Assembly: GCA_030649895.1 (NCBI GenBank)
Contig: JAUSEX010000031.1
Location: 2,620 to 66,619, forward strand
Direction: 5' to 3'
DNA from: Candidatus Omnitrophota bacterium
GTDB taxonomy: Bacteria > Omnitrophota > Gorgyraeia > Gorgyraeales > Gorgyraeaceae
Length of the DNA stretch: 64,000 nt
In this document: in pieces, positions 41,978 through 63,624 of the stretch
Layout of the letters: each line of letters starts with the position of its first letter
How positions within the stretch are numbered: the stretch's first letter is position 1
The notes under the pieces: generated by a model
What the model was told of the DNA's origin: nothing
Database searches by the model: none
The model's input: the letters and a program-made list of their open reading frames with translations, nothing else
Position numbers and translations under genes: made by a program

Positions 41978-42760
41978 ATGAACTTAATAGTCAGATTTAA
42001 AAAAATAATAGCTGAAAGACAGATTATCAGGGGCATGGTAATAAAAAATTTAAAGAGCAAATATATCGGCTCTATATCAGGGATCTTGTGGGCTGTTATA
42101 AATCCTTTGTTGATTATGCTGGTGATCACCTTTGTTTTTAGCCAGATAATGAAGACAGATATAAAGCATTTTCCATTATTGGTGTTAAGCGCGCTTTTAC
42201 CTTGGAATTTTTTTAATAATTCTATAAATGAATCCGCAGCTTCGATCAGCAGCAATGTCGATGTGTTAAGGCAATTTGTGATGCTTAAAGAGACTATCCC
42301 TATAGCTACGGTAATAACTAATCTTATAACTTTTTTATTTGGTTTTATAATTGTCCTGCCGGTTTTTATTATGTTTAATACAGGCATTGTAAATTATCTT
42401 ATCTTGCTGCCTTTTGTAGTGGTGCTACATTTTATTTTTACATTAGGGATCTCCATGCTTCTTAGTATAATAAATGTTTATTTTAAAGACTTGCCTCAGT
42501 TATTGAATATTTTTTTAATGTTACTATTTTGGCTTACGCCTGTATTTTATTCCATAGATATGATACCTCAAAAATACCACTGGCTTATTATTGCCAATCC
42601 GAGCGCATGTTATATTATTATTTACAGGGCGCTATTATATCAGGGTTTTAGCGGCGGCATATCTATATGGTTACTTGCGATTGGATTTGCTTTGATCAGC
42701 ATAATAAGCGGGTATTTTTTATTTATGAAAAAAGAATCGGAAATCTTGAAATACGCGTAG
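41978..42760 (+). CDS. wzm: ABC-2 type polysaccharide exporter permease (Wzm/TagG-like)
   Basis: 260 aa, six TM helices, ABC-2 family pattern. Immediately upstream of the ATPase. Confidence 0.8.
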   Translation: MNLIVRFKKIIAERQIIRGMVIKNLKSKYIGSISGILWAVINPLLIMLVITFVFSQIMKTDIKHFPLLVLSALLPWNFFNNSINESAASISSNVDVLRQFVMLKETIPIATVITNLITFLFGFIIVLPVFIMFNTGIVNYLILLPFVVVLHFIFTLGISMLLSIINVYFKDLPQLLNIFLMLLFWLTPVFYSIDMIPQKYHWLIIANPSACYIIIYRALLYQGFSGGISIWLLAIGFALISIISGYFLFMKKESEILKYA

Positions 42761-42783
42761 ATAAAAACGATGGATTGAATATC

Positions 42784-45597
42784 ATGAGCATGATATCTTT
42801 AAAAGATGTTGGTTTAAAATATAAGGTAGAGTTTAAAGAAAACGGCAGGATTACAACCGAGGATTTTTTGGCGCTTAAGGATATAAATATAGAGATAGAA
42901 AAAGGGGAAATCGTAGGGATCATAGGTGAAAATGGGGCTGGGAAAACCACGTTACTTAAAATAATAGCCAGGATGCTGGCGCCTGATAAGGGTACAGTTG
43001 ATGTAAATGGCAAAGTCTCTATGCTTATGGAAATAGGGTCTGGTTTTCACAGGGAGCTTACAGGCAGAGAGAATATATATACTATTTCTTCATTATTTGG
43101 CTTTTCAAAAGCGGAGATAGAGGCGAAATATGGTGATATAGTGAAGTTTGCAGCTATAGGCAGGTTTATAAATGCGCCGGTAAAGATTTATTCTCAAGGC
43201 ATGTATATGCGCCTGGCTTTTGCTATAGCGATACATGTGAACCCCGATATCTTGCTGGTGGATGATATATTTGCGGTCGGAGATGTTTATGCGCAGCGTA
43301 AATGTATCAATAAAATGTTTGAACTTAAAGAGCAGGGCAAGACTATTATTTTTGTTAACCAGGATATAGAAATACTAAAAAGATTCTGCACAAAGGGTAT
43401 ATTCTTAAGGGAAGGCAGCGTTGTTAAGGAAGGACCTATAGATAAAATATGCGATTACTATATGGAATCAGTGGGTGAAAAAAAAGGAATTGCTATTTTG
43501 GAAAAAGGTTTATTAGGCGTAGTTTTTAATAATGGCAGACTTATTCTAAGGTGGAAGAACAACGCTATTACATGTGGTTTTGGCGGATATACTATGGTTT
43601 TAACTTCAGGCCGTCAATATCTGTCAAATACTGCTGACTGGGAAGTCCAAAAGTCTAAGACAGGCGATGAAATCATAGCCATAGGTAAATGGCCTGATAC
43701 CCCGCTTATTCAATGCTGGAAAATAGTTTTCTTAAGTGAGAGAGAATTTTCATGGGAAATAACGATGCAAATGTTTGAAAATATTGCTATAGAGAAATTT
43801 TCTGCAGATATTATATTTATAGAGGGATATAAAAAGTGGTTTACTTTGGACAGTGAAACTAGTTTCCCGGAGGCTTTTGTTCACGATGCAGAATGGGAAT
43901 ACAATCTAGTCAGTGATTCTGCCAATAAGCTAATCGGCTTAAAAGGCAATAATCAAATATCAGGCTTTTTACCCGTGGTAATTTTAGACAGGTCTAATGA
44001 TAATATGGAAATAAAATGTGAAGTTTGTAATACAGGCGCCGATATAGGAGGCAGGGCAGTCCGATATCAGTCTCTTTGTCAGAAGCCGGGATTTGATTAT
44101 ATCCAGGATAAATACAGGTGTTTCCTTAGCACGGTAAGAATATTTGAATCTGAAGAAGGCGAGGGTTTAAAAAATTATATTAGTTGTACAAAACAAATAA
44201 TAAGTGAATCCTACATTATACGCAAAGGCTTAATAAGCCTTTTTTGCAAGGATCATAAGGTTGAAATTTATTATCGAGATAAATTACTTACGAGCGGAAT
44301 AGGTTTAAATGTGAGATTTAAATGCCAAGATAAAAATTACAGCCCTCTTGATGGGCAATGGGTTATGCACAAAAAAAATAATGAAGAAATAGCAATAACT
44401 ATTTCTTGGGGCGGGAAATCGCCACTTATTCAAACATGGAAGCTGAAATTGCAGGATGATAATGTTGTAGCATGGGAAATAGAGATGGAGATTAATGAAA
44501 AGACAGTGATAAGAAATAAGGAAGTAGAGCTGACACTTAATGAAGAATATGAGAAATGGATAACTGAGAATGAAAGAGGAGATTTTAAAAAAGCAGAGAA
44601 ACAAGGCAGCACAGTGCTTTTAAATAAATATATAAATGAACATATCGGCGTAGAGGGCATATCTAAAGTGGATGGGTTAGTTTTGCCTGGTGTAATATTT
44701 AATTATAAAGACGCGGCCCCCAAGGTTTCTTACATTTCTAAAATAAAAGAAGGGATAATGGCTACAAAATTACGGTATACGGAAATAGACTGTAAGGATA
44801 ATTTTTATATTCCATCAGGAAGGTATGAATATTTTAAAGGCGAGATAAAAGTGATAGCTGATCAAGAAAAAAGCCAGGATTTGATAAATAAAAAATCGGC
44901 TATTGGTAAGAAGGAATCATTAAACAGAATAGAACTTGGCAGCGTGTCGTTAGTTTTTGATAACGGAAGAGGCAGGATTTTTTGGAACGGTACAGAATTG
45001 ACAAAAGGATTAGGGCTGTACGCGTCTATTTTTTTTAAAGACGTATGGCATGATTCCTCTCAGGCTTTTTGGGAGGTTAAAAAGTTAGACCAAAAAAGAT
45101 TATCGGCTGTTGGTTATTGGCCTTGGCTGCCACTGATACAGACTTGGAAGATTTGTTTAGAGGATGAAAATACTGTTGTGTGGGATATAAAAAAAGAAAT
45201 TTGGGATGATGTTATTTTAAAAAGAGAACAGGTAAATCTTATGCTTTCGGATAACTATAAGGCATGGTCTGCTCATAAACGAATTCATGGAAAGTTTCCC
45301 AGTACATTTAGCAAGCATAGTGGTATTTTTTGGGATAGACTGTGGTGTGGGGATACTACCTCTCCTATTAGAGTTGAAAAGCAGAGGATTGGAAATAGGA
45401 TTTTAGGTGGGCAGCTTTTACCAGCTGTTGCTCTTGATTGTTCAATAGATTGTCCTGCCCGCTATTTCATTATTGAAAATACGGATGATTTATTTGAAGC
45501 CCGGGTTCTACAGTGTGAATTTGATTCGAATCAGAAATGCGGCGTTAATAAAGATAGAGATAAATATTTTGAAGGGCGAATCAAGGTAAATATTTAA
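42784..45597 (+). CDS. wzt: ABC transporter ATP-binding protein (Wzt/TagH-like) with ~690-aa C-terminal extension made of three novel bipartite modules
   Basis: Start placed at ATG 42784 (MSMISLKDVGL) after the permease stop. Walker A GENGAGKTT, ABC signature YSQGMYMRLAFA, Walker B ILLVDDIFAVGD. The C-terminal repeats start near 43510, 44230 and 44940. Confidence 0.85.
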   Translation: MSMISLKDVGLKYKVEFKENGRITTEDFLALKDINIEIEKGEIVGIIGENGAGKTTLLKIIARMLAPDKGTVDVNGKVSMLMEIGSGFHRELTGRENIYTISSLFGFSKAEIEAKYGDIVKFAAIGRFINAPVKIYSQGMYMRLAFAIAIHVNPDILLVDDIFAVGDVYAQRKCINKMFELKEQGKTIIFVNQDIEILKRFCTKGIFLREGSVVKEGPIDKICDYYMESVGEKKGIAILEKGLLGVVFNNGRLILRWKNNAITCGFGGYTMVLTSGRQYLSNTADWEVQKSKTGDEIIAIGKWPDTPLIQCWKIVFLSEREFSWEITMQMFENIAIEKFSADIIFIEGYKKWFTLDSETSFPEAFVHDAEWEYNLVSDSANKLIGLKGNNQISGFLPVVILDRSNDNMEIKCEVCNTGADIGGRAVRYQSLCQKPGFDYIQDKYRCFLSTVRIFESEEGEGLKNYISCTKQIISESYIIRKGLISLFCKDHKVEIYYRDKLLTSGIGLNVRFKCQDKNYSPLDGQWVMHKKNNEEIAITISWGGKSPLIQTWKLKLQDDNVVAWEIEMEINEKTVIRNKEVELTLNEEYEKWITENERGDFKKAEKQGSTVLLNKYINEHIGVEGISKVDGLVLPGVIFNYKDAAPKVSYISKIKEGIMATKLRYTEIDCKDNFYIPSGRYEYFKGEIKVIADQEKSQDLINKKSAIGKKESLNRIELGSVSLVFDNGRGRIFWNGTELTKGLGLYASIFFKDVWHDSSQAFWEVKKLDQKRLSAVGYWPWLPLIQTWKICLEDENTVVWDIKKEIWDDVILKREQVNLMLSDNYKAWSAHKRIHGKFPSTFSKHSGIFWDRLWCGDTTSPIRVEKQRIGNRILGGQLLPAVALDCSIDCPARYFIIENTDDLFEARVLQCEFDSNQKCGVNKDRDKYFEGRIKVNI

Positions 45598-45621
45598 GAT
45601 TTATTTTATTAGATAGATAAA

Positions 45622-46656
45622 ATGGACATTAGCACGCAAAATATCAATGCAAATTTTAAAAGAAACGGATCAAATTCTATTTTTCCGAATTATTGCTGTT
45701 TTGTAATTACGCTTAAGTGTATAATGAAATGTAAAATGTGTCACATTTGGAGAGATAGTGGAAACATCTTAAACGAACTGACAATTCAAGAATGGAAAGA
45801 TGTTGTAAATTCTCTCAAGGGTTTTTTGGATACGAAATATGATATTATATTATCCGGCGGAGAGCCGCTTTTAAAGAAAGATATACTAGGTCTGGTAAGT
45901 TATATTGCAAAATCAGGGTACAGGGCATCTCTTGAAACAAACTCTTATCTTGTTGATGAAGAACTGGCCAGGGCAATCCAGGATTCAGGGTTGTGGAGAA
46001 TTTGTATTTCATTGGATAGCTTGGCTGAGGATACGCATGATTCATTAAGAGGAAGAAAAGGTTCGTATGGAAGGGTAATGAGAGGGATTGAATATTTAAA
46101 TAAGTTTTGTCCATCGGTCGGTATAAATATACAAACTACTATTATGGAGCAAAATTTAGATGAGCTTGCTAAGCTTGCTGAATGGGTAGCTAGTGATGAA
46201 CGATTAGATTATGTTTATTTCCAGGCAATAGTCCGTCCTTTTGGCACGCCTATGGATGAAAATTGGTTTAAAGGCGATCATTATGGGTTTTTATGGCCTA
46301 GCCATACAGATAAAGTAAATCTGGCTATAGAAGAGCTGATAAGAATTAAAGAAAATAATCCTAAAATTGCCAATACAGTTGCTCAGTTTAAGGCGTATAA
46401 GGCATATTTTAAAGACCCGGTTAACTTCGGTAATAACATAAAATGCACGATAGGTAACCGCGATATTAATATAAATCCATGCGGCGATGCATACCTTTGT
46501 TTTTCAAAAGATTCCATAGGCAATATAAAAAATAGAAGCATAGAAGAAATATGGTATTCAGAAAAGGCTGACAAGGTAAGAAATGAGATCATTGGCTGTA
46601 AAAAACATTGCCATTTTTTACTCAATTGTTCTTTTGAAAAGGGAGACTATTTTTAG
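45622..46656 (+). CDS. radical SAM protein with C-terminal Cys-rich (SPASM/twitch-like) domain, paralog 1 of 8
   Basis: 344 aa. YCCFVITLKCIMKCKMCHIW (CxxxCxxC), SGGEPLL glycine motif, C-terminal C-x12-C-x5-C...C-x3-C-x5-C (IGCKKHCHFLLNC). Confidence 0.8.
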   Translation: MDISTQNINANFKRNGSNSIFPNYCCFVITLKCIMKCKMCHIWRDSGNILNELTIQEWKDVVNSLKGFLDTKYDIILSGGEPLLKKDILGLVSYIAKSGYRASLETNSYLVDEELARAIQDSGLWRICISLDSLAEDTHDSLRGRKGSYGRVMRGIEYLNKFCPSVGINIQTTIMEQNLDELAKLAEWVASDERLDYVYFQAIVRPFGTPMDENWFKGDHYGFLWPSHTDKVNLAIEELIRIKENNPKIANTVAQFKAYKAYFKDPVNFGNNIKCTIGNRDININPCGDAYLCFSKDSIGNIKNRSIEEIWYSEKADKVRNEIIGCKKHCHFLLNCSFEKGDYF

Positions 46657-46679
46657 TAGATTTTTATCTAAAAATTATT

Positions 46680-47696
46680 ATGCAAGATAAGCCATTTAAT
46701 TTTTTAAAATCTCAAAGCAGCCTTTTAGATATACGAAAACCGGCATTTTGCTGTATAGGTATTTCTACAGGGTGCATTTTGAAATGCAAGATGTGTTCAG
46801 TGTGGAAAACCAAATATGTTGCTATGCCACAAGAACCTACTATGGATGAATGGTTTCGTTTTATCGAGCTTGCTGCCGGCTTAACGGAAAATTCTATCGA
46901 GATAAACGTTTCCGGAGGAGAGCCTTTATTAGATGAAAGAAATTTAGCGTTAGTTAAATTTAGCGCCAAAAAAGGACTTTCAACTTCTATGCCTACCAAC
47001 GGTTTTCTCATAGACAAAGAGATGGCTTATAAAATAGCAGATAGCGGACTAAGCGCGATAGGCATATCTTTGGATGGTATCAAAAAAGATACGCATGATT
47101 TTTTAAGAGGCGTAGAGGGATGCCATGACAAAGCAATGCAGGCGATTGACTATCTTGATAGATGCTGCGGAAATATAGGAATAGGAATTTTGACAACTAT
47201 ATCAGAGAAGAATATCGATGAAATTATTGAGCTAACCAGGTGGGCTAATGAAGACAATAGAATCGAAACTATTATTTTTCAGGCGGTAACTCAGCCATTT
47301 AATACTCCTTTTGACGATGAATGGCATGATAAAAGCGAATATAGTTTTCTCTGGCCGAAAGACATCAGAAAGACCCATGTCTTATTAGACGAGATAATAA
47401 AACTAAAAAAAATGGCGTATAAGATATCCAACACAGTTTCTCAATTGGAAACTTTTAAGAAGTATTTTGAAAACCCCTTGGGATTTATTAAAAAAGATGC
47501 GTGTAATGTGGATTTTTATATGAATATAAATCAATTTGGAGATGTATATATGTGTCCAAGAAAAAAAGCTGTAGGGAATATAAGAAAATGCACTCCAAAA
47601 GATATGTGGTATTCAGAAGGCGCAAATCAAATGAGAGAAGAAATAAAAAGCTGCAGAGTAAATTGTCATCATGTATTAAATTGTTGTTATGAATGA
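46680..47696 (+). CDS. radical SAM/SPASM-like protein, paralog 2
   Basis: 338 aa. FCCIGISTGCILKCKMCSVW, SGGEPLL, KSCRVNCHHVLNCCYE. Confidence 0.8.
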   Translation: MQDKPFNFLKSQSSLLDIRKPAFCCIGISTGCILKCKMCSVWKTKYVAMPQEPTMDEWFRFIELAAGLTENSIEINVSGGEPLLDERNLALVKFSAKKGLSTSMPTNGFLIDKEMAYKIADSGLSAIGISLDGIKKDTHDFLRGVEGCHDKAMQAIDYLDRCCGNIGIGILTTISEKNIDEIIELTRWANEDNRIETIIFQAVTQPFNTPFDDEWHDKSEYSFLWPKDIRKTHVLLDEIIKLKKMAYKISNTVSQLETFKKYFENPLGFIKKDACNVDFYMNINQFGDVYMCPRKKAVGNIRKCTPKDMWYSEGANQMREEIKSCRVNCHHVLNCCYE

Positions 47697-50600
47697 GGAT
47701 GGTGGTTATCGTATGAACAGCTGGACAGCAAAATTTAAGAATAAAATATATGCGTTCGAAAAGATATTCAAGCAAAAAAGGACAAGCTTTCGCACGATAT
47801 ATAATGGTACCTTAAGGCTCTTTCTGGATGAAAATAATAGGCTTAGGATATATTATAAAGACAATGAGCTTACAAAAGTCTCCGGTTTGAATACTAACAT
47901 ATTATCCGAAGCTAATTGGCATAGTTCGCTTGACTCTATAGTTAATAATATAGAAAAACTATCTTCTGAAGAGATGATTATCCATTTGAAGCATAGTCAG
48001 CTTCCTCTTGTGCAAGCTTGGCATCTGAAATGCAACTCAGAAGATACGCTTAGCTGGGAAGTAAATATGCATATAAAAAAACCGTTACGTATAGATTGTA
48101 TGAAAGCATCCTTGTTCTTATCCAAAGCTTATGAGGATTGGATAATTCCTGCCAAACAAGATACATTTCCTCCTTTTTCTGATTTTCAATGGAAAAGTAT
48201 GAATTCTTTTGAAGATAAAGCCGGCTTCATAGGCCTTGCTTCTTCCTTAGAAGAATTTCCTGGCATGTCTCTTAAAAGTTCTGATAACTCAAAAGCTTCA
48301 TTAATAATCCAAAATACCGATATAAATCTTTCTTCCCGTGTTCTTGAAATTCAATGCGAAGATAAAAAAGAATTCTACCAGCCCGGCACCTACTCTTTTC
48401 TTAAGGCCACAATACAGTTTTATCCTGATAAGAATGTTTTAAAAAATATTCTCAAAGAAATAAAGGAGCAGGAACAAAAGAAGCAGGACGAGCTAATGCT
48501 TCAAGAAGAAGAGCGCCTCAAAAAAGCCAAAGAGGAAGACCATAAGCTCCGCACCCTTCAAAGCGGCCCCTTTAGGCTCCATATAGACCAGCATAACAGG
48601 TTTCACCTCTATTATAAAGAACAAGAGCTTACCAAAGGAGTTGGTATTAATATGGGAATACTCTCTGAAGGTAATTGGTATGCTGCCTGTGATTCCAGAA
48701 TTGAAATAAAAAGGCCGTCTTCTAATAAGATGCTTGTACAGTTTATTTACAATAAGCTTCCTGTTATTTGCTCATGGCAGATAGATTTTAAGCCGGAAGG
48801 CGTGTTTACCTGGGTCATTGATATATCTTTTAAAGAATCTCTACGCATAGATCGAAGCAATGTTTCTTTATTCTTATCCAAATCTTACGATAATTGGATT
48901 GCTCCTCCTGAAGAAGGGAGTTTCAGCTCTTCATTCGGCCCAGGGTGGCAAAGGATGAATACTCACAAAGACAATGCTGAATTTACCGGATTATATTCTT
49001 CTTCAGAAGAATTTCCGGATGTGATTTGTAAAAGCTCAAAGGATTCAAAAGCTTCATTAATAATCCAAAATACCGATATAAATCTTTCTTCCCGTGTTCT
49101 TGAAATTCAATGCGAAGATAAAAAAGAATTCTACCAGCCCGGCACCTACCCTTTTCTTAAGGCCACAATACAGTTTTATCCTGATAAGAATGTTTTAAAA
49201 AATATTCTCAAAGAAATAAAGGAGCAGGAACGAAAGAAGCAGGAACAGGAACAAAAACGGCTTCAAGAATTAGAAAGGCTTAGACAGGAAGAAGAAAGGC
49301 TTAAGCAGGAACAGGAACAGAAGAAACAGGAAGAAAATCACAAACAGAATGAATTTAAAAAAATATACATGTTATTAAAAGAAGACGAAAAAGATTTTCC
49401 ATTAATCGAGGATAATGATGTGTATGTATATGGAGACTGCGAAGACTTGCATGACAAAATTGCTTCTCAACAAGGAAATTTTAATAATCTCATTTCAAGA
49501 ATAGAGACAGCCAAAAAAAAAGGTTTAAAGGTTAATATAAAAATAGGCGTATCGAAATTTAATTTTTTTAAGCTAGACACTATTATTCAATTTTATTCTA
49601 GATTGCTAAATAGCCGCATAGACCTGCGTTCTGTTTCTTTGAATTTTTTACCCGCAAAGAATATTTTTTATTATTTCGCCGAGTATATAAAACAATTAAA
49701 TATGCAGCTCGAATCGAGTAATATAGGGCTTTTCTTAAGAGACAAAGAGTTGCCCGGCCTTCTTTGGGCTATTTCTAGCCAAGCAGATCAATATAATGAG
49801 AAAGATTTATTGCGATTATTGGGAGTTATAACGGAGCACGCCTTTATTGGACCTCAAACTATCGTTCTAGATATTAATCATAGCTGTAATACTAATTGTA
49901 TACATTGTTGGATCCATACGCCAAAGCGTAAGGCCTCTCTACAGCTTAGTAATTTAAAGATGGACATCTCTTTATATAAAAATATTATTGATGATGCGGC
50001 AAATCTTTTATGTGACGAGATTATCATACAGGGAGATGGCGAGCCTCTTCTAGACGATAGATTTTTAGAAATGACCTGTTATGCGCGGGATAAGGGATTA
50101 AAAGTTTTATTTTTTACGAATGGCATACTTTTGGATAAAGAAAAAGCCGGTAGAATAATAGACTTGGAAGTAAACGAGATATTCTGCAGCCTTCCTGCAG
50201 GAACAGATAAGACTTATGCCTTGGTTAATCCGGGGCATTCAAAGGATACCTTTCATCATATAGCAGCGAATTTAAAAAATTTAAGCTTGATGAGAAAAAA
50301 ATCAGGAAAAAACAAACCATTATTACAAATGTCCCATGTTATCCATAACCTGAATTATCATGAGTTAGAAGAAATGGCTGAATTGGACGCTTATATAGGA
50401 GCGGATAAAACAAGATTTTATCTTGCCCGCTTAGATGAGAATATAGATTTTTTAAAATTAAGCCCTAGACATATTAAGATAATAAAAGAATCCCTAAAAA
50501 AGACAGCGCCCTATTTAAAAAGCAAGCACGTAGAATTACAAGACAATATATATTTTCAGCTAGAAAACTATAACTCTACAACAGGTTATTGGTCTAAAAA

Positions 50601-54379: not shown

Positions 54380-54537
54380 TTTACAAAAGTTTGTTAAACA
54401 TTGCAAGGCAGGCGGGTTATTTTATGCTATTAGTAGAGGCGTTAAATATGTAACTTGGCGCAATAAATGTAAAAAAATGGGTATAGACTGTGGAAAATTC
54501 AGCAGAGAAAGATAGCTGTATTAAAAAAAGGTGATTT

Positions 54538-56669: not shown

Positions 56670-56670
56670 A

Positions 56671-57717
56671 ATGCCTGATTCTTGCGAAGTAAGATCGGAG
56701 AAAGAAACTTTAAATGAAAAAAATGTTCTAAAACCCAGTTTTTGCTGTGTAGCTGCTACGGATTATTGTATGTTACGCTGCAAGATGTGCAATAAGTGGC
56801 ATGAACCTGCCCCAAAGAAAGAGGAGTTGCCTTCTTTGGATGAGTGGAAAAATTTTATAGCCGGTTTTAGAGAATTGGTAGACGAAGGTTTTGAAATGGA
56901 TTTTGGGGGAGGCGAGGCGTTATCGATGCCAGGCATATTGGATTTAGTAAAATTTGCAAAACTAAAAGGGTTTAGGACAACTATGGCTTCAAATGGGTAT
57001 CTTATTGATATGGATATGGCTAAGAGAATCGCAGATGCAGGATTAGATGCCGTAAGCTTGTCTTTAGATAGCTATAACCCTGAGGTTCACGATAAAATGA
57101 GGGGAGTTAAAGGCGTTCATCAGCAGGTAATGAATGCTATAGATAATTTGACAAAATATTCTCCGCAAACAAGAAAAGGCCTTTGCTGTATTATCATGAA
57201 CGAAAATTTGGATGAAATCCTCAATCTTGTTGATTGGGCAAATGGCAATAAAAAAGTAGACTGGATATATTTTATGGTAGTAGTCCAGCCTAATTATAGC
57301 GGGCCGTTGACAGATAACTGGGTGGATGAGTATCAATATCTCTGGCCTAAAGATAAATCAAAGGTGCTTGCTGTTCTAGACGAGCTTATAATGCGAAAGA
57401 AAAATGGCTCCAAGGTAAGCAATAGGGTAGAGCATCTCAGGGCATACAAGGCGTATTTTAACAATCCGCAGAAATTAGTAAATAAGGCCAGATGCATTGT
57501 TGGCGGCAAGGCAATAAGCGTTAATGCTTATGGCTTTGTCCAACTCTGTCTTTTTAAGGATTTTATAGGAAATATAAGGCAGAATGATATCAGGGAATTA
57601 TGGCGTTCTCAGGATGCAAATTTAATAAGAAAAAAAGTAGATGAGTGCAAGACAAATTGTCATTTGCTTCTTAATTGTTGTTATATAGAAGATGAACCGT
57701 CTCTCTATTCGGATTAA
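56671..57717 (+). CDS. radical SAM/SPASM-like protein, paralog 5
   Basis: 348 aa. FCCVAATDYCMLRCKMCNKW, GGGEALS, DECKTNCHLLLNCCY. Separated from paralog 4 by 1 nt. Confidence 0.8.
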   Translation: MPDSCEVRSEKETLNEKNVLKPSFCCVAATDYCMLRCKMCNKWHEPAPKKEELPSLDEWKNFIAGFRELVDEGFEMDFGGGEALSMPGILDLVKFAKLKGFRTTMASNGYLIDMDMAKRIADAGLDAVSLSLDSYNPEVHDKMRGVKGVHQQVMNAIDNLTKYSPQTRKGLCCIIMNENLDEILNLVDWANGNKKVDWIYFMVVVQPNYSGPLTDNWVDEYQYLWPKDKSKVLAVLDELIMRKKNGSKVSNRVEHLRAYKAYFNNPQKLVNKARCIVGGKAISVNAYGFVQLCLFKDFIGNIRQNDIRELWRSQDANLIRKKVDECKTNCHLLLNCCYIEDEPSLYSD

Positions 57718-57731
57718 ATATCCTTGACCAG

Positions 57732-58739
57732 ATGAACCAGGACTTTCTCGTTCGCAAGCCTAAATACTGCTGCTGGGTTCTTAATTATCGCTGTATGTTA
57801 AGATGCAAGATGTGCTACATCTGGAATATCAAAGACGATAAAAGCCAGGAAACTACCATGGAGGAGAAAAAGAAATTTGTCAAATCCTTGCGCGGCATGG
57901 TAGGCCCTGATTTTGAATTTCACTTATCAGGCGGGGAGCCTTTAATGACAGAGGGGGTTTTGGATTTAGTTAGTTTTATTGCTGATGAAGGATATAAGAC
58001 AAATATGGTTACAAATGGCTTTCTTATCGATGAAAAAATGGCAGAAGATGTTATGAATTCTAAACTGGGGAGCGTTACTATTTCATTAGATGGAATAAAT
58101 CCAGATACCCATGATTATATCCGAGGCGTAAATGGCAGCTATTCCAGGATAATGGAAGCTATCGAATATCTGGATAGGTCTAGAAAAGATAAAAGCCCGA
58201 AAATCTCCATGTTGACTGTTATAATGGAACGCAATTTAGATGAGCTGCTTGAGCTTGCAGAATGGGTTCAACAGGATAAGAGGTTAGAGATGATAAGCTT
58301 TCAGGCAATAAACCAGCCTTTTTGCGAAGATATGGATAAAGAATGGTTCAGAGAAAATAAAAATAGTTTTCTATGGCCTCAGGATAAAGCAAAAACCAGC
58401 TTTATTATGGAGAGGCTTAGAGAATTAAGGTTAAAAGGGAATAAAATAGGGAATCACCATAATCATTTTTTGCATTTCAGGGAATATTTTAAGGATCCGA
58501 ACACATTTTTAAAGAAGATAAAATGCAATCTTGGAGATTATGAGTTTCATGTTGATCCGTACGGGAAGATGTTTTTCTGCTCTTTTACAGATTCGATGGG
58601 AAATATAAAAAAAGATGATATAAATAAAATCTGGTATTCGCCGGAAACAAAAAAAATAAGGCAGGATGTGTATAATTGCCGCAGAAACTGCCATATAATG
58701 ATTAATTGTTTTTATGAAGATGAAGCCTGCATTACGTAA
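57732..58739 (+). CDS. radical SAM/SPASM-like protein, paralog 6
   Basis: 335 aa. YCCWVLNYRCMLRCKMCYIW, SGGEPLM, YNCRRNCHIMINCFY. Confidence 0.8.
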   Translation: MNQDFLVRKPKYCCWVLNYRCMLRCKMCYIWNIKDDKSQETTMEEKKKFVKSLRGMVGPDFEFHLSGGEPLMTEGVLDLVSFIADEGYKTNMVTNGFLIDEKMAEDVMNSKLGSVTISLDGINPDTHDYIRGVNGSYSRIMEAIEYLDRSRKDKSPKISMLTVIMERNLDELLELAEWVQQDKRLEMISFQAINQPFCEDMDKEWFRENKNSFLWPQDKAKTSFIMERLRELRLKGNKIGNHHNHFLHFREYFKDPNTFLKKIKCNLGDYEFHVDPYGKMFFCSFTDSMGNIKKDDINKIWYSPETKKIRQDVYNCRRNCHIMINCFYEDEACIT

Positions 58740-59982
58740 AACATTTTTTATAACAGTGCCAGCCGTATTGATTTTTCTCATCGTGCTGGAGTTATGCTTG
58801 AGGATGTGCGGGTATTTATATATACAGCGTCACAATCATGAAGCGCATACCAAAACAACGGAATTAAGTAAGGATAAACTCAGGATTCTTTGCTTGGGAG
58901 ATTCTTTTACTTTTGGCGTGGGGTCTAGTCCTGAAAACAATTATCCAAAGCAGTTAGAAAGAATATTGCAGGAAAATATCTCTGAGAAAATAAGCGTTAT
59001 TAATGGGGGCCGCCTTGCCAATACTTCATCGTTACTCTTAAAAAATTTACAAGAAAATATTAATAAATATTCTCCGTCTATCATAGTTGTAATGATAGGA
59101 ATGAATAATAGTTGGAACTTAGAAGGCAGCAGTTATTTTTTGTTAAATAGCAGCATAGGTTTACTGGAAAGACTGGAAAGAATGTCAAGCTCTTTCCGTA
59201 TATACAAATTATTAAAGATAGGATGGGTTAATTTTAAATATAAAATAGATGGAAATAAGAAAATAGCTTCTGCTAATAATTCGATTCGGAAAATAAAACC
59301 TGAATCATTAGAGTTATCCGCTATTGGCAATGAATTATTCTTAAAAGGGGAGTATATCCTGGCTATAGAGAAGTTGCAGGAGTCATTAAAAATAGATAAC
59401 AACAACTACGATGCGTATTTATTTTTAGCAGGTATGCGAAATACTCAGAAAGAATTTCAATTAGCTGAAAAAGAGATATGGCAAGCTATTAATTCGATAG
59501 ATGAATGGGACGATCATCTTATCTGCACAGTGCTTCTAGCCATCAATAGGCTTGGCGATAAGAAAGAAGCAGAATTAGTAAAACTGAAATCGTATTTTAA
59601 AAGTAAATATTATGGGAATAAAAAGAGCAGGCTACTTAAGATAATAGAGGCAGATTTAGATTTTTCAAAAAAAGAAACCATATCTAAAGTGCTGGAATAT
59701 GATTTGGAACGGATAGTTAGGTTGGCTAGGGAGAACAGAGTAACGCTTATTTTGCAGACTTATCCAAGGAGCATACTTGAGAATATTACTATAGAAACAA
59801 TAAGCCGAAAATATAATAGTTGCTTAGCAAACAACGAAATAATATTTAAAGAAAAGGCTCGAAGCGATTTTTTTGTTGCCGATGGCCATTGTAATGAGAA
59901 AGGATATGAATTAATTGCGGAAAATGTGTATGATATTTTGGTTAAAGAAGAAATGTTACCTAGAAAAAGAACAGGAGAATAG
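58714..59982 (+). CDS. membrane-anchored SGNH/GDSL-family hydrolase with TPR-like C-terminal region
   Basis: 422 aa. N-terminal TM, then GDSFTFGVG (GDS-x block I) and later SGNH blocks. Overlaps paralog 6 by 26 nt. Confidence 0.6.
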   Translation: MKMKPALRKTFFITVPAVLIFLIVLELCLRMCGYLYIQRHNHEAHTKTTELSKDKLRILCLGDSFTFGVGSSPENNYPKQLERILQENISEKISVINGGRLANTSSLLLKNLQENINKYSPSIIVVMIGMNNSWNLEGSSYFLLNSSIGLLERLERMSSSFRIYKLLKIGWVNFKYKIDGNKKIASANNSIRKIKPESLELSAIGNELFLKGEYILAIEKLQESLKIDNNNYDAYLFLAGMRNTQKEFQLAEKEIWQAINSIDEWDDHLICTVLLAINRLGDKKEAELVKLKSYFKSKYYGNKKSRLLKIIEADLDFSKKETISKVLEYDLERIVRLARENRVTLILQTYPRSILENITIETISRKYNSCLANNEIIFKEKARSDFFVADGHCNEKGYELIAENVYDILVKEEMLPRKRTGE

Positions 59983-59986
59983 AATA

Positions 59987-61045
59987 ATGGCAGATAAAAT
60001 AAAAGAGAATTTAAGCAAGACAATTGTTTTACCCGCATTTTGCCTTTTGGTTGTTTCTAAAATATGCAATTTTAGATGTAAGATGTGCAATATGTGGAAG
60101 AATAAAGAACGCGGTATAGACAGGAAAGAACTTACCATGGAAGAGATGAAAGGTTTTGTAGATGATTTGAAGAATGTTACTACAGAGCCTATCTTTATTC
60201 ATCTTATAGGAGGAGAGGCATTATTAAGAAAGGATTTAACGGAGATCGTATCTTATATAAAGAAAAGCGGCTTTAATAGCTCTATTACTACGAATGGATA
60301 TTATATTGATGATGAGATGGCGAAAAAGTTAGTTGAATCAGGGCTTAAAGGAATATTTCTTTCTCTGGACGGTTTTGAGGAAGATACCCATGATTATCTG
60401 CGAGGCGTTAAAGGCAGCTATAGGCGCGTGATGGATGCTATTGAATTATTGGATAAAAATAGGGGAGACGATAAGTTGAATAGGTTAAGTATCGGCATAA
60501 CTATGACGCTTATGGAGAAGAATTTGGACGAGGTGTTGGATTTGGCTGAATGGGCAAATAACAATGAAAAGATAAACGATTTATTTATTAATGCATGTTT
60601 GCAGCCATTTGACGCCGATGATCATGAAAGAGAATGGTTTAAAAATAGAAAGAATAGCGATGTCTGGCCGCAGGATATAGAAAAAGTTTGCGCTATCTTA
60701 GAAAAGTTGGCTTTGTTAAAGGAAAAGGGTTATAAGATTTGCAATCCTCCGAAACAACTGAGGCTGGTCAAGGAGTATTTTAAAAACCCCTATAGATTTA
60801 TACATGACAGTAAAATAAAATGCCCAAGGGGAGACTTGGCTCCGGAAATAAACGCTTATGGAGATATAAATATGTGTTTTTGTATGCCGCCTGTTGCAAA
60901 CATAAGAGAGAAGAAGTTTTCAGAGGTATGGTATTCCAGGGAAATGGAGGACGTAAGAAATGAAATAAATAAATGTAAGAAAGATTGCGATATAGCTGTA
61001 AATTGCTTCTATAAAATTGAAAATATAACCGATTATGTTAAATAA
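59987..61045 (+). CDS. radical SAM/SPASM-like protein, paralog 7
   Basis: Start moved to ATG 59987 (MADKIKENL) with an AGGAG RBS 9 nt upstream. The track start 59915 overlaps the SGNH gene. AFCLLVVSKICNFRCKMCNMW, IGGEALL, NKCKKDCDIAVNCFY. Confidence 0.8.
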   Translation: MADKIKENLSKTIVLPAFCLLVVSKICNFRCKMCNMWKNKERGIDRKELTMEEMKGFVDDLKNVTTEPIFIHLIGGEALLRKDLTEIVSYIKKSGFNSSITTNGYYIDDEMAKKLVESGLKGIFLSLDGFEEDTHDYLRGVKGSYRRVMDAIELLDKNRGDDKLNRLSIGITMTLMEKNLDEVLDLAEWANNNEKINDLFINACLQPFDADDHEREWFKNRKNSDVWPQDIEKVCAILEKLALLKEKGYKICNPPKQLRLVKEYFKNPYRFIHDSKIKCPRGDLAPEINAYGDINMCFCMPPVANIREKKFSEVWYSREMEDVRNEINKCKKDCDIAVNCFYKIENITDYVK

Positions 61046-62012
61046 GAGCCCAAAAACCTGTCTTCTGACTGTAACAAATAATTGTGTTTTGCGCTGCAAA
61101 ATGTGCCATCTATGGCAGCTTAATACCGCAGAAAATGAAGTTAATATAGATGACTGCAAAAGATTAATAGATTCTTTTAAGGGGTTTGGGCCAGAACCTG
61201 TAGAGGTGCATATTATTGGAGGAGAATCCTTGATTAAAAAAGGAGTATTAGACTTGATCTCGCATATAAGCAACAAAGGATCTAGGACTGTTATGACTTC
61301 ATGCGCATATACTATAGATGAAACAATGGCAAAGGCAATTGCCGGATCTGGTTTAAATATGTTAAATATATCCATAGATAGCTTAAACCCATTAGTTCAT
61401 AATTTTTTAAGAGGGCGAGATGATTCTTTTCAGCGCGCAATGAGCGCAATTGATTATCTGAGTAAGTATAAAGATAATAGACTGAGATTAGGTATCAACA
61501 CTGTTATTTCAGCAAAGAATTTAGATGATATAGTTGGATTAAGCGAGTGGACACTAGGTAATAAAAATCTGGATTCTATTTATTTTATGGCAGTAATGAG
61601 GCCTTTTGGCTCTAACCTGGACTGGCATTGGTTTAAAAAAGAGGAATATAAGGATCTCTGGCCTTTGGATTATTCTAAAGTTGAACTAGTATTAGATAAA
61701 CTCATTACTTTAAAAAACAAAGGCTCTAAGATAGGGAATCCTGCAAGTCAATTAGAGGTCTTTAAGACATATTTTAAAAATCCTTTCGATTTTATAAAAG
61801 TCAATAGGTGCAATGTTTCTGAGCAAGCCCTTAATATAAACGCATTAGGCGATGTTTATCTTTGTTTTTTTATGGAAAAATTGGGCAATATCAAAGAACA
61901 TAATGTGGCGCAGCTTTGGAATTCCGATAAGGCGCAAAAGATCCGCGCCCAGATGCGCTCCTGCAGGAATAATTGCGAATTAGTAGTGAATTGTTATTAT
62001 GAGGAAAAATAA
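61035..62012 (+). CDS. radical SAM/SPASM-like protein, paralog 8
   Basis: 325 aa. KTCLLTVTNNCVLRCKMCHLW, IGGESLI, RSCRNNCELVVNCYY. 11-nt overlap with paralog 7. Confidence 0.8.
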   Translation: MLNKSPKTCLLTVTNNCVLRCKMCHLWQLNTAENEVNIDDCKRLIDSFKGFGPEPVEVHIIGGESLIKKGVLDLISHISNKGSRTVMTSCAYTIDETMAKAIAGSGLNMLNISIDSLNPLVHNFLRGRDDSFQRAMSAIDYLSKYKDNRLRLGINTVISAKNLDDIVGLSEWTLGNKNLDSIYFMAVMRPFGSNLDWHWFKKEEYKDLWPLDYSKVELVLDKLITLKNKGSKIGNPASQLEVFKTYFKNPFDFIKVNRCNVSEQALNINALGDVYLCFFMEKLGNIKEHNVAQLWNSDKAQKIRAQMRSCRNNCELVVNCYYEEK

Positions 62013-63624
62013 TCGTAGAGATACTAATTTTATAGAGTCTAAAATGAGAAGAAGGAATTATTTATTTTTAATATTAATAATATTAAGTTTTCATGTCTTC
62101 CTAAACTATCAAGTATTGAAGAAAAGTAATATTATAAGAATGGATGATGAAGGAGGGACTATAATAGCAGGCTTGAATTGTTACAATATAATATTCTTGG
62201 ATCATAGCATTAAGCTTGTTAATAAATTAGGTTTTATTTTAGGCCTGCATGGTCAATGCCATCCTCGTTTTGTTGAACTCGCAGAAGCGCTTTCTTGGAA
62301 GGCGCTTAATTTATTTAAAATTTTAGACATAACTTCAATGATTTTAGTAGTTAATGCTATATTTTTTATTATTTTATTAGGCAGTGTATATGGAATTGGT
62401 TCAATAGTTTATAATAGAAATGTAGGCATATTATCTGCAGCGCTGGTTTCAATGTTTCCTTTGGTATTTGGACATTCAAGATTAGCTATGCGAGATTTTC
62501 CTTTGATGTGCATGGTTTCTCTGGGTTTTTATCTGCTTCTGAAGGCCGGTAAATTTAGTTCTAGTTTGTATAGCGTATTATCTGGCGTAGTGTTTGGTTT
62601 AGCGCAATTGACCAAAGAAACTGCTTTTATTTTTTTTCTTACCCCATTAATTTATTATTTTACTGGATCTTACTCGTTGGACAATAAAAAGAAGGTGTTG
62701 CGAAATTTTATTGTTACTTTGGCTTGTTTTTTAATTTTAACCGGAGTTGTATATTTCAGATTAGAAAATCTGCACGCGTTTAAAATATATTTTGGGAAAA
62801 CTTGTTATATCAGGAATTATCCCAATTTTTTTTATTATTTAAAAAATTTTATAGAAATTACAGGGCCATTTATTTTGATTATATCGTTGCCTTTGTTTGT
62901 TCAATACTTGGTTAACATTAAAAGAAGAGAGAAAATTCTATTTGTTTGGTTTATTATCCCGATTATATTGTTTAGCATTACCCCAAATAAAGCTATCAGA
63001 TTTCTTTTCCCCATATTGCCGGCTTTTGCCCTAATCGTAAGCAGCGAAATAGCCAATATTAATTTATCTAAAGAATTTAAAAAGGTATTTTATATTATGC
63101 TGATTTCAATCTCAATACTTCAATATGCGTTTTTCAATGCTGGAATTTTAGATACAAAATTTAAAAACCCGTATTTTGAAGCAGGCATCTTGTCTGTTAG
63201 AAAAGATAAATATTTGCCTGAATATATGAGATTATTGGATGTTTTTAAAAAAGAAGCAAAAAATAATAATGTCTCGGGAAATAAGAATGTAGTTTTTTTA
63301 TTCAATATTCGGGAGATCTATTGGCCGTTTTGGCTGGATACTTGGGTATATAAAATGCCTTTCAATGTATCTAATTCACTGCTGGTAGATGAGGTAGATG
63401 TGATTAATACCTACCATGTTGATTGGGATAAAGAAATTTTGAAAGCGGATTATATTGTTAATAAAACAGGCTTTAAAGAACGGCAAGATTATCGGAATCA
63501 TATTTTAGATGGGTTGGAAAAAGGTTTTATTAAATATAAAGATAGATTTGAATTAATCGCTGACATTAAGCTATTGTTTGATAACTCTGCGGTATACGTG
63601 TATAAAAAAGTTAGTCACAATTGA
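62002..63624 (+). CDS. GT-C membrane glycosyltransferase (GT39/ArnT/PMT_2-like)
   Basis: 541 aa, ~12 TM helices. MFPLVFGHSRLAMRDFPLMCMVSLGFYLL loop region resembles ArnT/PMT-family mannosyltransferases. Confidence 0.6.
   Translation, partial: RKNNRRDTNFIESKMRRRNYLFLILIILSFHVFLNYQVLKKSNIIRMDDEGGTIIAGLNCYNIIFLDHSIKLVNKLGFILGLHGQCHPRFVELAEALSWKALNLFKILDITSMILVVNAIFFIILLGSVYGIGSIVYNRNVGILSAALVSMFPLVFGHSRLAMRDFPLMCMVSLGFYLLLKAGKFSSSLYSVLSGVVFGLAQLTKETAFIFFLTPLIYYFTGSYSLDNKKKVLRNFIVTLACFLILTGVVYFRLENLHAFKIYFGKTCYIRNYPNFFYYLKNFIEITGPFILIISLPLFVQYLVNIKRREKILFVWFIIPIILFSITPNKAIRFLFPILPAFALIVSSEIANINLSKEFKKVFYIMLISISILQYAFFNAGILDTKFKNPYFEAGILSVRKDKYLPEYMRLLDVFKKEAKNNNVSGNKNVVFLFNIREIYWPFWLDTWVYKMPFNVSNSLLVDEVDVINTYHVDWDKEILKADYIVNKTGFKERQDYRNHILDGLEKGFIKYKDRFELIADIKLLFDNSAVYVYKKVSHN

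Follow-up and report, generated by a model that had tools for sequence, protein, structure and literature searches.

The locus examined here is best explained as a system in which a lipid-linked glycan is tailored by radical chemistry in the cytoplasm and a module-gated ABC transporter (Wzm/Wzt) then exports it, a reading to which we assign a probability of roughly 60%. Eleven cytoplasmic radical SAM (rSAM) enzymes, encoded in a fixed series, would stand in for the usual tailoring enzymes. The system was described in no curated family, and a literature search found no paper on it; it points to an undescribed route of surface-glycan remodelling before export. The initial annotation of this DNA had already proposed an rSAM system of glycan or polymer modification and export, an interpretation that is supported here and of which every testable part held up.

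Within the 64,000-nt stretch of DNA analysed (the window), positions 36159-63624 were found to hold a single tightly packed gene series, with all genes intact and on the + strand. The intergene distances, between -26 and +32 nt, are compatible with one operon. Tight gene boundaries in one long operon had been described previously for a locus starting at 41978; the boundaries were confirmed, but the operon most likely starts at 36159. Its probable first gene (36159..37325) encodes a GT4-family (GT-B) glycosyltransferase (PF00534, E 9e-32; PF13439). This is followed by genes for a multi-transmembrane polyprenyl-phosphate HexNAc-1-P transferase of the WecA/MraY type, the initiating enzyme (37322..38314; PF00953, E 9e-32; WecA model 64 bits, under cutoff), an FAD/NAD(P)-binding flavoprotein of the amine-oxidase type (38330..39655; PF01593, PF13450), a NodU/CmcH-type carbamoyltransferase (39664..41511; PF02543, E 2e-100; PF16861, E 2e-69) and a small SxtJ-like membrane protein with two transmembrane-like segments (41544..41963; PF19588, E 7e-9), for which the source contig has a 139-aa gene call. 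SxtJ-like proteins are usual partners of carbamoyltransferases. The best match of the flavoprotein was the uncharacterised PRK07208 flavoprotein family (165 bits), and the UGM-likeness claimed for it proved weak (UGM model 35 bits against a cutoff of 304); the other assembly parts previously named (GT4, WecA-like transferase, carbamoyltransferase and Wzm/Wzt) were recovered with Pfam.

The SGNH esterase and membrane glycosyltransferase reported further downstream were also identified. The former is an SGNH/GDSL hydrolase (58714..59982; PF13472, Lipase_GDSL_2, E 3e-12) with TPR repeats (TPR_11) and one N-terminal membrane anchor (transmembrane-like segment at residues 5-38), the catalytic part of which is probably outside the cytoplasm; SGNH genes recur in related loci. 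The latter, a GT-C fold transferase (61999..63624; PMT_2/ArnT-like; PF13231, E 6e-11; PF03901), is the last gene product of the operon. Hydrophobic segments marked the WecA-like transferase (~9 segments), Wzm, the SxtJ-like protein and the GT-C transferase (~8 transmembrane-like segments) as membrane proteins, with no true membrane span found in any rSAM enzyme or in Wzt; the single hydrophobic stretch among the rSAMs, in paralog p7, forms a strand within the rSAM core. The locus encodes just two cytoplasmic glycosyltransferases, which counts against the glycan-tailoring reading.

The exporter consists of Wzm, an ABC-2 permease (41978..42760; PF01061, ABC2_membrane, E 3e-13) with a galactan Wzm/RfbD model as its top NCBIfam match, under cutoff, and Wzt (42784..45597; ATG at 42784), called as a 937-aa gene. 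In Wzt, a TagH/Wzt-like (NCBIfam) ATPase domain (residues 1-235; PF00005, ABC_tran, E 8e-21) is followed by three tandem modules (43501-44193, 44194-44883 and 44884-45594). Pfam did not find Wzt_C (PF14524) in this protein, and the analysis supports the module taking the place of that canonical domain. The module had been noted earlier as common to the exporter ATPase and two of the rSAM enzymes, and BLASTP bore this out for Wzt, a 1073-aa rSAM protein (the giant) and a B12-type rSAM enzyme (E 1e-9 to 2e-27, with giant and Wzt at 2e-27). These hold six copies, with none elsewhere in the window. An AF2 model (pLDDT 87.6, pTM 0.83) predicted a mutarotase-like supersandwich fold for the ~225-aa module, in which W, Y, E, N and R mark the conserved positions and no His is invariant. 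This supersandwich also occurs in the periplasmic domain of YidC, PBCV-1 protein P19 and an NDH subunit; as these are proteins with no known sugar binding, the fold alone is no proof of glycan binding. Among the related loci the module was present in about 60 proteins, rSAM enzymes included, with up to 11 repeats on Wzt.

Radical_SAM (PF04055) was matched by eleven ORFs between 45622 and 62012 (E 6e-14 to 4e-26), ten of which also had SPASM (PF13186) over cutoff. Twelve rSAMs had been counted originally, a number reached only with the enzyme encoded upstream at 19904, as the locus itself holds eleven. A thirteenth rSAM in the window, at 24880, is MiaB-like and housekeeping. Every rSAM ORF is intact and no pseudogenes were found among them. 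Among ten rSAMs scanned with NCBIfam, a set without p4, p6 and p7, none reached the cutoff of any model, in line with the earlier view that this is not a known pathway.

The B12-binding rSAM assigned to the locus is a 730-aa class-B enzyme (50923..53115) whose alignment with HpnJ and BchE runs over the full length, its PF02310 score of 29.3 bits being slightly short of the 32.1 cutoff. An HpnJ/BchE-like region (residues 1-450) is followed by a long helix and one mutarotase-like module (~490-730). The paralogous enzyme claimed upstream (19904..21337, + strand; 477 aa; PF02310, 38.4 bits; PF04055) was confirmed by 30% identity to residues 1-441 of the 730-aa protein (E 6e-58); it lies in a second glycan-type cluster, and its tie to the main locus is uncertain. 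HpnJ was the best NCBIfam match of both B12 enzymes (266.6 bits for the 730-aa protein and 397.5 for the upstream one; cutoff 577.6).

This nearness to HpnJ is consistent with the rSAMs modifying the hydrocarbon of a lipid or polyprenol, or the sugar head group of a glycolipid, which Wzm/Wzt would then flip. Enzymes that act on the hydrocarbon of membrane lipids include Tes, Mss, Gms, Grs and HpnP/R. Weak matches to Tes and to ladderane-type B12 lipid rSAM models were obtained, and the N-terminus of the flavoprotein is weakly similar to HpnE and CrtI. Furthermore, lipid-modifying pairs of SPASM and B12 rSAMs are known (PMC11214058). However, every lipid-family score was far under cutoff, Pfam found no isoprenoid or fatty-acid synthesis genes in the locus, and chemistry on a lipid chain gives no account of the carbohydrate-type module repeated on Wzt, nor of the GT4 fusions and NDP-sugar enzymes of related loci described below. 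We regard lipid tailoring as unlikely; if the target is a glycolipid head group, this reading partly coincides with that of a tailored lipid-linked glycan and is no true competitor.

The giant (47689..50910) comprises two mutarotase-like modules with E/K/Q-rich helical spacers between, a partial rSAM-like segment at residues ~578-650 (partial HxsC/HpnH matches) and a C-terminal rSAM/SPASM region (PF04055, residues 731-899; SPASM, 978-1051). This region is related to the 419-aa rSAM/SPASM protein r419 (53120..54379; PF04055, PF13186), with 26% identity over 324 aa. The giant is kept at 1056-1209 aa in loci L002, L004, L005, L007 and L049, and r419 is the most conserved enzyme of the system (64-73% identity in L002 and L004).

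These two proteins and the eight ~340-aa rSAM/SPASM paralogs of the initial annotation were all confirmed, each with a PF04055 match; pairwise identity among the paralogs is 34-52%. The latter were designated p1 (45622..46656; 344 aa), p2 (46680..47696; 338 aa; PF04055, E 1e-19), p3 (54538..55587; 349 aa, TTG start; E 1e-20), p4 (55611..56669; 352 aa; E 2e-21), p5 (56671..57717; 348 aa; E 2e-24), p6 (57732..58739; 335 aa; E 1e-23), p7 (59987..61045; 352 aa from an ATG at 59987 placed by alignment; E 4e-26) and p8 (61035..62012; 325 aa; E 2e-20; SPASM, E 5e-11). A CX3CX2C motif and five C-terminal Cys are invariant across the eight. Their rSAM core begins at around residue 25, and they thus have no N-terminal recognition domain. 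The closest structural neighbour was BlsE, a sugar-modifying rSAM, followed by SkfB and SuiB, with sequence identity to BlsE of only about 18% and a BlsE NCBIfam score of 57 bits against a cutoff of 400. Six of the eight (p3-p8) have reciprocal-best orthologs in the same order in seven related loci at 48-81% identity (p3, 49-72%; p4, 55-80%; p5, 67-81%; p6, 57-70%; p7, 53-80%; p8, 48-65%), against only 34-52% between paralogs, indicating an old and differentiated section of the series; orthologs of p2 (59-63%) are present in L002 and L049. The mutarotase-like module is absent from all eight and from r419, which counts against module-guided action on a glycan.

The survey of related loci covered 185,579 species genomes and returned 71 loci; all loci of the system are from uncultivated organisms. 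The pairing of Wzt module and rSAM array is kept in dozens of Omnitrophota loci, as a check of neighbourhood conservation had been advised to establish, and L002 has the identical order of GT4, WecA, flavoprotein, Wzm and Wzt. In L037 and L045, from two other phyla, the r419 family is fused to a full GT4 glycosyltransferase. L037, a related Desulfatiglandales locus, further encodes another GT4, two NDP-sugar epimerase/dehydratases, Wzm and a Wzt that has the canonical Wzt_C domain (PF14524). In nine loci, B12-rSAM, module and r419 form one fusion protein of ~1400 aa. Where loci are rearranged, the rSAM genes still adjoin genes for GT4, carbamoyltransferase and PMT_2 (the last in L012, L018, L020, L022, L027 and L071).

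It is very improbable that an ordinary polysaccharide export cluster merely neighbours an unrelated rSAM expansion serving, for example, metallo-cofactor or enzyme maturation. A maturase of a tungsten-cofactor oxidoreductase was the top NCBIfam match of r419 and the giant, and the small paralogs match the heme enzymes AhbD and NirJ, all under cutoff. Yet Pfam found no target oxidoreductase, sulfatase or tetrapyrrole genes in the locus, the genes overlap or abut, and the adjacency holds across about 70 loci despite rearrangement. The module common to Wzt and rSAM enzymes, together with the rSAM-GT4 and B12-rSAM-module-r419 fusions, largely refutes this reading.

A conserved gene for a basic 49-aa protein (pep; 54366..54515), overlooked in the earlier gene list, overlaps the stop of r419 by 14 nt and is preceded by the Shine-Dalgarno sequence AAGGAGG. 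No Pfam match was found for pep; its substitution pattern is of the coding type, and it recurs in 10 related loci (61-70% identity). Such a small ORF, conserved and translationally coupled within the rSAM array in 11 loci, could be the precursor of a RiPP or peptide-derived cofactor, modified by the SPASM and B12 rSAMs and exported by the ABC-2 transporter. SPASM domains occur throughout the locus and SPASM-type rSAMs are best known as peptide maturases; top NCBIfam matches include peptide maturases and cofactor enzymes, all under cutoff, and the second and third structural neighbours of the paralogs may be read likewise. The candidate does not behave as a precursor, however. It is conserved over its entire length, with no split into leader and core, and is missing from most related loci that retain the rSAM set. 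Elsewhere its motif occurs in cis: stand-alone modules have it at the N-terminus, B12-rSAM proteins have it ahead of their module, and in r419 it forms an N-terminal extension. Pep resembles a helix inside enzymes of other loci; it probably represents this helix, located there ahead of modules and r419, in free-standing form, and may act as a docking or adaptor piece. Pfam found no PqqD/RRE domain and no leader peptidase, the paralogs carry no N-terminal extension, and a peptide product leaves the GT4-rSAM fusions, the Wzt_C context and the mutarotase-like modules unexplained. We consider a RiPP origin quite unlikely.

For glycan tailoring, we infer the substrate, its binding by the modules, the order of steps and all of the chemistry as follows. 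The WecA-like transferase would prime polyprenyl phosphate and the GT4 enzyme would lengthen a simple backbone. The flavoprotein would supply conventional decorations, as would the carbamoyltransferase together with its SxtJ-like partner. While the lipid-linked glycan is still on the cytoplasmic side of the membrane, the giant and the B12-type rSAM may bind it through their mutarotase-like modules. These two, r419 and the eight BlsE-like paralogs would act on sugar carbons in a succession of radical reactions. The B12 enzyme may catalyse C-methylation or ring contraction, and candidates for the SPASM/twitch enzymes are epimerisation, oxidation, decarboxylation, dehydration or cross-linking. 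Wzt would recognise the finished glycan with its three module copies before export through Wzm. Completion or transfer of the glycan beyond the cytoplasm would fall to the GT-C transferase and the membrane-anchored SGNH hydrolase.

Known ABC-dependent O-antigen pathways with a substrate-reading Wzt include those of E. coli O8/O9a, K. pneumoniae O12 and Aquifex aeolicus (Wzm-Wzt), and in E. coli O9a the Wzt_C domain reads the chain cap, a parallel to the recognition of the finished glycan proposed here for the Wzt modules. Shared with these are WecA-type initiation on polyprenyl phosphate, full cytoplasmic assembly, a Wzm permease, a Wzt ATPase with a C-terminal extension positioned to read the glycan and, in L037, canonical Wzt_C. 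In contrast, Wzt_C is replaced here by three ~225-aa modules that are also found on putative tailoring enzymes, and a WbdD-type kinase or methyltransferase terminator is missing, with eleven rSAMs as the proposed tailoring enzymes instead. Polymer-level glycan tailoring without radicals is known from alginate mannuronan C5-epimerases and heparosan C5-epimerase. The shared concept is a paralogous enzyme family that diversifies a simple backbone after polymerisation, although the C5-epimerases belong to unrelated families with unrelated chemistry, work in the Golgi or beyond the cytoplasm and do without Fe-S/SAM chemistry. Clusters of RiPPs with multiple rSAMs (proteusins/polytheonamide PoyB/C/D, sactipeptides, SkfB and SuiB) likewise place several SPASM and B12 rSAMs in one operon with an ABC exporter and a small ORF, but differ from this locus, which has no RRE or peptidase, a pep motif found inside enzymes elsewhere, a Wzm/Wzt-type exporter and, in related loci, GT4 fusions.

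Class-B rSAMs that act on sugars include the C-methylases GenK and GenD1, and HpnJ, for which ring contraction of lipid-linked glucosamine has been proposed. The B12 enzymes resemble HpnJ in having an N-terminal B12-type domain and an rSAM core, and the proposed HpnJ substrate is a sugar on a lipid; unlike HpnJ, they score under the equivalog cutoff, hopanoid genes are absent and the 730-aa enzyme adds a C-terminal helix and module. Other sugar-modifying twitch/SPASM rSAMs are DesII, BtrN and AprD4, along with the epimerases NeoN and HygY. BlsE itself is a cytosylglucuronate decarboxylase (PMC3715490). The paralogs share with the BlsE group a compact ~330-aa rSAM core with a C-terminal auxiliary-cluster domain and no peptide-recognition domain. 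Each known enzyme of the BlsE group occurs as a single copy, with nucleotide sugars or aminoglycosides as substrates, whereas here eight differentiated paralogs are encoded within an export operon.

Twenty one genes, all on the forward strand and with intergenic gaps of -26 to +32 nt, were found to occupy positions 36159-63624 of the window. The initial annotation had begun the locus at 41978, a start that is replaced here by 36159 as the most likely start of the operon. The first ORF (36159) encodes a GT4-family glycosyltransferase (Pfam PF00534, E 9e-32), and is followed by a WecA/MraY-type initiating transferase (37322; PF00953, E 9e-32), an amine-oxidase-type flavoprotein (38330), a carbamoyltransferase (39664), an SxtJ-like membrane partner of the latter (41544), a Wzm ABC-2 permease (41978; PF01061, E 3e-13) and a Wzt ATPase of 937 aa (42784, a corrected start; PF00005, E 8e-21). 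Downstream of the exporter, Pfam identified eight radical SAM (rSAM)/SPASM paralogs of approximately 340 aa, termed p1 to p8 (45622, 46680, 54538, 55611, 56671, 57732, 59987 and 61035, that of p7 being a corrected start), a giant rSAM/SPASM protein of 1073 aa (47689), a B12-type rSAM enzyme of 730 aa (50923) and an rSAM/SPASM protein of 419 aa, r419 (53120). An SGNH hydrolase with TPR (58714) and a PMT_2 GT-C transferase (61999) were also identified by Pfam. The locus genes previously listed were all found to be intact (Pfam and ORF check). The flavoprotein is present as described, with its suggested likeness to UGM being unconvincing (35 bits against a cutoff of 304 for the UGM model).

The locus contains core features of a Wzm/Wzt-type system, namely a permease with an adjacent ATPase, together with an initiating transferase and a cytoplasmic glycosyltransferase. 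The best NCBIfam matches of the Wzt were TagH and Wzt/RfbE, both under their equivalog cutoffs, and none of the accessory genes of the locus reached an NCBIfam cutoff. A promoter and terminator scan of the locus was uninformative, as the counts matched shuffled expectation, and neither a cobalamin or SAM riboswitch nor any other Rfam family was found in the locus. The G+C content of the rSAM part (42001-64000) is 0.30-0.39, below that of most of the upstream 42 kb (0.34-0.45); surface-polysaccharide loci are commonly low in G+C.

PF04055 scored above cutoff in all eleven rSAM enzymes of the locus. The initial annotation had counted twelve, and the twelfth is an HpnJ-like B12 rSAM that lies upstream of the locus at 19904. 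It belongs to a second glycan-type cluster (14165-24857, +), which holds three PMT_2/TPR membrane proteins, a GT2, a SAM methyltransferase and a GT9 heptosyltransferase-like gene. A thirteenth rSAM of the window, a MiaB/RimO-type methylthiotransferase (24880-26100, +; UPF0004 and Radical_SAM), is unrelated to the locus. Elsewhere in the window, a type IV pilus/type II secretion-like cluster (3208-12929, +; from translations read by eye only) was found to contain PilM/N/O-like genes, a secretin, a PilB-like ATPase, a PilC-like platform protein and five pilin-like genes whose products carry an FTL(V/T)E motif at the N-terminus. Also identified were a class A RNase P RNA (33975-34387, 194 bits) and genes for tRNA-Ala (13233-13308), tRNA-Met (32236-32312) and tRNA-Val (32662-32737). 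A 154-aa ORF called at 13109-13573 runs across the tRNA-Ala gene and is unlikely to be genuine.

The cysteines C33, C37 and C40 of the CX3CX2C motif are invariant across p1 to p8, and the cluster motif of r419 is CNNDCIGC. Despite a match to PF13186, the full seven-Cys SPASM motif for two auxiliary clusters was not found; only five C-terminal cysteines are invariant in p1 to p8 (C275, C293, C326, C330 and C336) and only four in r419 (C297, C315, C370 and C374), a pattern that looks more like twitch or partial SPASM. For B12 binding (PF02310), the 730-aa enzyme scored 29.3 bits against a cutoff of 32.1 and the upstream B12 rSAM 38.4 bits, the two being 30% identical. Against HpnJ, these enzymes scored 266.6 and 397.5 bits respectively, under the equivalog cutoff of 577.6, and no hopanoid genes were found in the window. 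Membership of the BlsE family (cytosylglucuronate decarboxylase, TIGR04466) was not found by sequence, and no NCBIfam cutoff was reached by any of the ten rSAM enzymes scanned (covering every large enzyme, the B12 rSAM at 19904 and, of the eight small paralogs, five).

Pairwise identity among p1 to p8 is 34-52%. Reciprocal-best orthologs of p3 to p8, in the same order, were identified in seven related loci of other genomes (L049, L004, L007, L006, L011, L059 and L030) with identities of 48-80%, well over those between the paralogs, while orthologs of p1 and p2 were found in fewer loci (L002, L049 and L007). Because of these same-order reciprocal orthologs in seven loci, at least the block of p3 to p8 is judged to be ancient, with every member retained, and recent tandem amplification was rejected for these six genes. 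The pattern of conservation is compatible with the enzymes performing distinct, non-redundant steps. As the rSAM core of p1 to p8 starts at about residue 25, these paralogs have no N-terminal peptide-recognition domain.

The proposal that the exporter ATPase and two of the rSAM enzymes share a module was confirmed using BLASTP (E 1e-9 to 2e-27). Three copies of this module, of approximately 225 aa, were found in the Wzt, two at the N-terminus of the giant and one at the C-terminus of the 730-aa B12 rSAM, with no further copies found in the window. No Pfam family was matched even at E <= 1, and a profile search of PDB sequences (E <= 1) returned no relative; an equivalent profile search with r419 found nothing. 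The word-indexed search for homologs gave only 12 fragments and a full HMM scan was needed, which identified only 614 family members among 1.84 billion representative proteins, typically carrying 2-9 copies each (8-9 in proteins P0135 and P0197). The fold of the module is a galactose mutarotase-like supersandwich, with further matches to the equivalent domains of GH2, GH36, GH38 and GH97 enzymes, glycan phosphorylases and polysaccharide lyases. Conserved positions among 14 module sequences are Trp, Tyr, Glu, Asn and Arg, and the catalytic His/Glu set of aldose-1-epimerases was not found among them. As these sequences have no invariant His, a role in binding appears more likely for the module than mutarotase catalysis.

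In the window Wzt, the position of the Wzt_C domain is filled by three modules whose fold is unlike that of Wzt_C, and PF14524 (Wzt_C) gave no match to this protein, while it does match the Wzt encoded in L037, a related locus (E 5e-22). Across related loci, a Wzt carries between 1 and 11 modules, the highest number being that of a 2743-aa homolog (L059:356-8587), in which an ABC ATPase domain is followed by 11 copies. Within the gene of the giant, a 299-nt direct repeat (48190-48488 and 48946-49244, 87% identity) spans the C-terminal portion of both modules along with the beginning of an E/K/Q-rich spacer. As the remaining parts of the two modules are far more diverged, this repeat points to either partial gene conversion or a duplication that arose recently within the gene. 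The helical, E/K/Q-rich spacers of the giant protein are reminiscent of the coiled-coil ruler of WbdD.

Across 185,579 species, with one genome taken for each, 71 related loci were identified. Most are from Omnitrophota, with other MAG labels being Wallbacteria, Cloacimonadota, Calescamantes, Desulfatiglandales, Myxococcales-type, Methanosarcinales and Woesearchaeota. The nearest loci with the gene order of the window (L002, L004, L005, L007, L010, L011 and L049) run from Wzm through a Wzt with three modules, the giant, a B12-rSAM with module, r419 and a small ORF to up to eleven small rSAMs. A second Omnitrophota group possesses the same set rearranged, running from small rSAMs through a giant with three modules to a fusion of approximately 1400 aa (B12-rSAM, module, r419, module), 3' of which lie a second B12 rSAM, a GT4, a carbamoyltransferase, a PMT_2 and another small rSAM. 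Of all proteins of the system, r419 is conserved best, with 64-73% identity in loci where p1 reaches only about 40-54%.

In L037 (Desulfatiglandales) and L045 (Wallbacteria), a complete GT4 glycosyltransferase is followed by a fused r419-type rSAM/SPASM domain. The neighbourhood in L037 contains a Wzm, a Wzt with canonical Wzt_C, a phosphodiesterase-family enzyme, another GT4 and two NDP-sugar epimerase/dehydratases and, judged by this gene content, is a textbook ABC-type glycan locus. Through the GT4 fusions and this context, the r419 family is tied to glycan assembly by evidence that does not depend on the module, which is specific to Omnitrophota. L037 also encodes a 2179-aa protein (14606-21142) that combines five rSAM domains with B12 and SPASM domains. 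Other megaproteins were found in L034 (7997-12319; 1440 aa, three rSAM/SPASM units) and L061 (12243-16736; 1497 aa, three B12-rSAM units). Homologs of r419 with 42-55% identity, often fused to B12 rSAM domains, were identified on contigs binned as Methanosarcinales or Woesearchaeota archaea (L051-L057, L062, L064, L065 and L068), which could be due to horizontal transfer or mis-binning. Some Omnitrophota have been reported to live on archaea.

The glycosyltransferase fusions and the shared carbohydrate-type module tie the rSAM enzymes to the exporter. That exporter and rSAM genes are adjacent by chance is highly improbable; the sharing of a module, the fusions and a linkage that is conserved all contradict it. 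Tailoring of a lipid or glycolipid is also unlikely; the likeness of the B12 enzymes to HpnJ and the known pairs of lipid rSAM enzymes are in its favour, but this explanation does not account for the carbohydrate-type modules and the fusions, and its glycolipid version merges with the main glycan model.

Between r419 and p3, a gene for a 49-aa product, pep (54366-54515, +), was identified that had been missed in the initial annotation. Its start and the end of r419, stop codon included, share 14 nt, an AAGGAGG Shine-Dalgarno site lies upstream, and pep is predicted to be translationally coupled to r419. The gene was found in the same place in ten related loci (61-70% identity), with a Shine-Dalgarno site in each, and differences across these loci fall at third codon positions (1056) approximately twice as often as at first and second positions (549 and 450). 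Pep is judged to be a real gene. Its product is basic (pI 10), has no TM segment and is conserved evenly over its full length. The motif F..h.K..GL.YA..+..KY of pep also occurs in cis in other loci, namely at the N-terminus of stand-alone modules, directly before the module in B12-rSAM proteins and in an N-terminal extension of r419, and the corresponding element forms a long helix in the module model. Pep is probably a free-standing copy of the helix that precedes the module, possibly acting as a docking or adaptor piece. An origin as a linker split off after r419 was rejected; the linker of the fused ~1400-aa proteins resembles the window r419's own C-terminal helix, so only motif-level homology is claimed for pep.

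A small gene amid rSAM enzymes could be read as the precursor of a RiPP cluster. This is improbable, because the pep motif is built into enzymes of other loci and neither a PqqD (RRE) domain nor a peptidase family was found by Pfam in any protein of the locus, a search that a very divergent RRE could escape. Nor does pep display the conserved leader and variable core of a molecule that is substrate only, and the GT4-rSAM fusions of L037 and L045 also argue against a peptide product.

All of the rSAM enzymes, the Wzt, the GT4, the flavoprotein and the carbamoyltransferase were found to be without a true membrane span, the sole hydrophobic stretch of p7 being a strand of the rSAM core. WecA, the SxtJ-like protein, Wzm and the GT-C transferase are polytopic, and the SGNH protein has a single N-terminal anchor. 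The most economical model is one of four stages, in which a polyprenol-linked glycan would be primed, extended and carbamoylated in the cytoplasm; remodelled there by the rSAM series, with at least two enzymes putatively holding it through their modules; recognised by Wzt through putative binding by its three modules and exported by Wzm; and finished outside by the GT-C transferase and the SGNH enzyme. Characterised rSAM enzymes of sugars suggest candidate reactions by analogy, namely C-methylation or ring contraction in the case of the B12 enzyme and, in that of the twitch-like enzymes, epimerisation, oxidation, decarboxylation or dehydration. The earlier reading of the locus as a glycan modification-export system is supported as far as computation on genomes that are uncultivated throughout allows.

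The three new features of the system are the replacement of ordinary tailoring enzymes by eleven differentiated rSAM enzymes, a module family that replaces Wzt_C and also occurs on tailoring enzymes, and rSAM-glycosyltransferase fusions. No description of these was found in curated families (Pfam, NCBIfam) or in the full-text literature searched, where Xanthomonas matches for radical SAM with Wzt and Wzm were irrelevant. In a preprint on Omnitrophota genomes, the sole mention of rSAM is a Pfam count for giant proteins. A conserved operon that pairs eleven differentiated rSAM enzymes with one to two glycosyltransferases would open up a new class of glycan modification and add new enzyme activities for the C-H functionalisation of carbohydrates. 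The module, p1 to p8, r419 and the GT4-rSAM fusions are cloneable targets, and the module family offers a handle for pulling out the polymer. Omnitrophota are a widespread phylum of ultra-small, probably host-dependent bacteria, whose cell surface the system is predicted to mark.

The overall frame is that of the already known ABC-transporter-dependent glycan pathway. Glycan diversity in such pathways is thought to be due to glycosyltransferases and simple transferases and rSAM enzymes are, to our knowledge, known to act on sugars only in small molecules (such as aminoglycosides, nucleoside antibiotics and deoxysugars). We tentatively propose, with a probability of roughly 0.4, that the locus encodes a 'radical assembly line' acting on a polysaccharide, the first to be known, in which eleven differentiated rSAM enzymes, at least two of them tethered to the glycan by the module, would rewrite a simple lipid-linked glycan at the polymer level and the exporter would check the product with the same module before releasing it. 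Stereochemistry and carbon skeleton would be changed by C-methylation, epimerisation, decarboxylation, ring contraction or C-C/C-O cross-linking. If true, such an assembly line would be widespread among Omnitrophota and would occur in other anaerobic phyla too, as the glycan counterpart of proteusin-type peptide tailoring.
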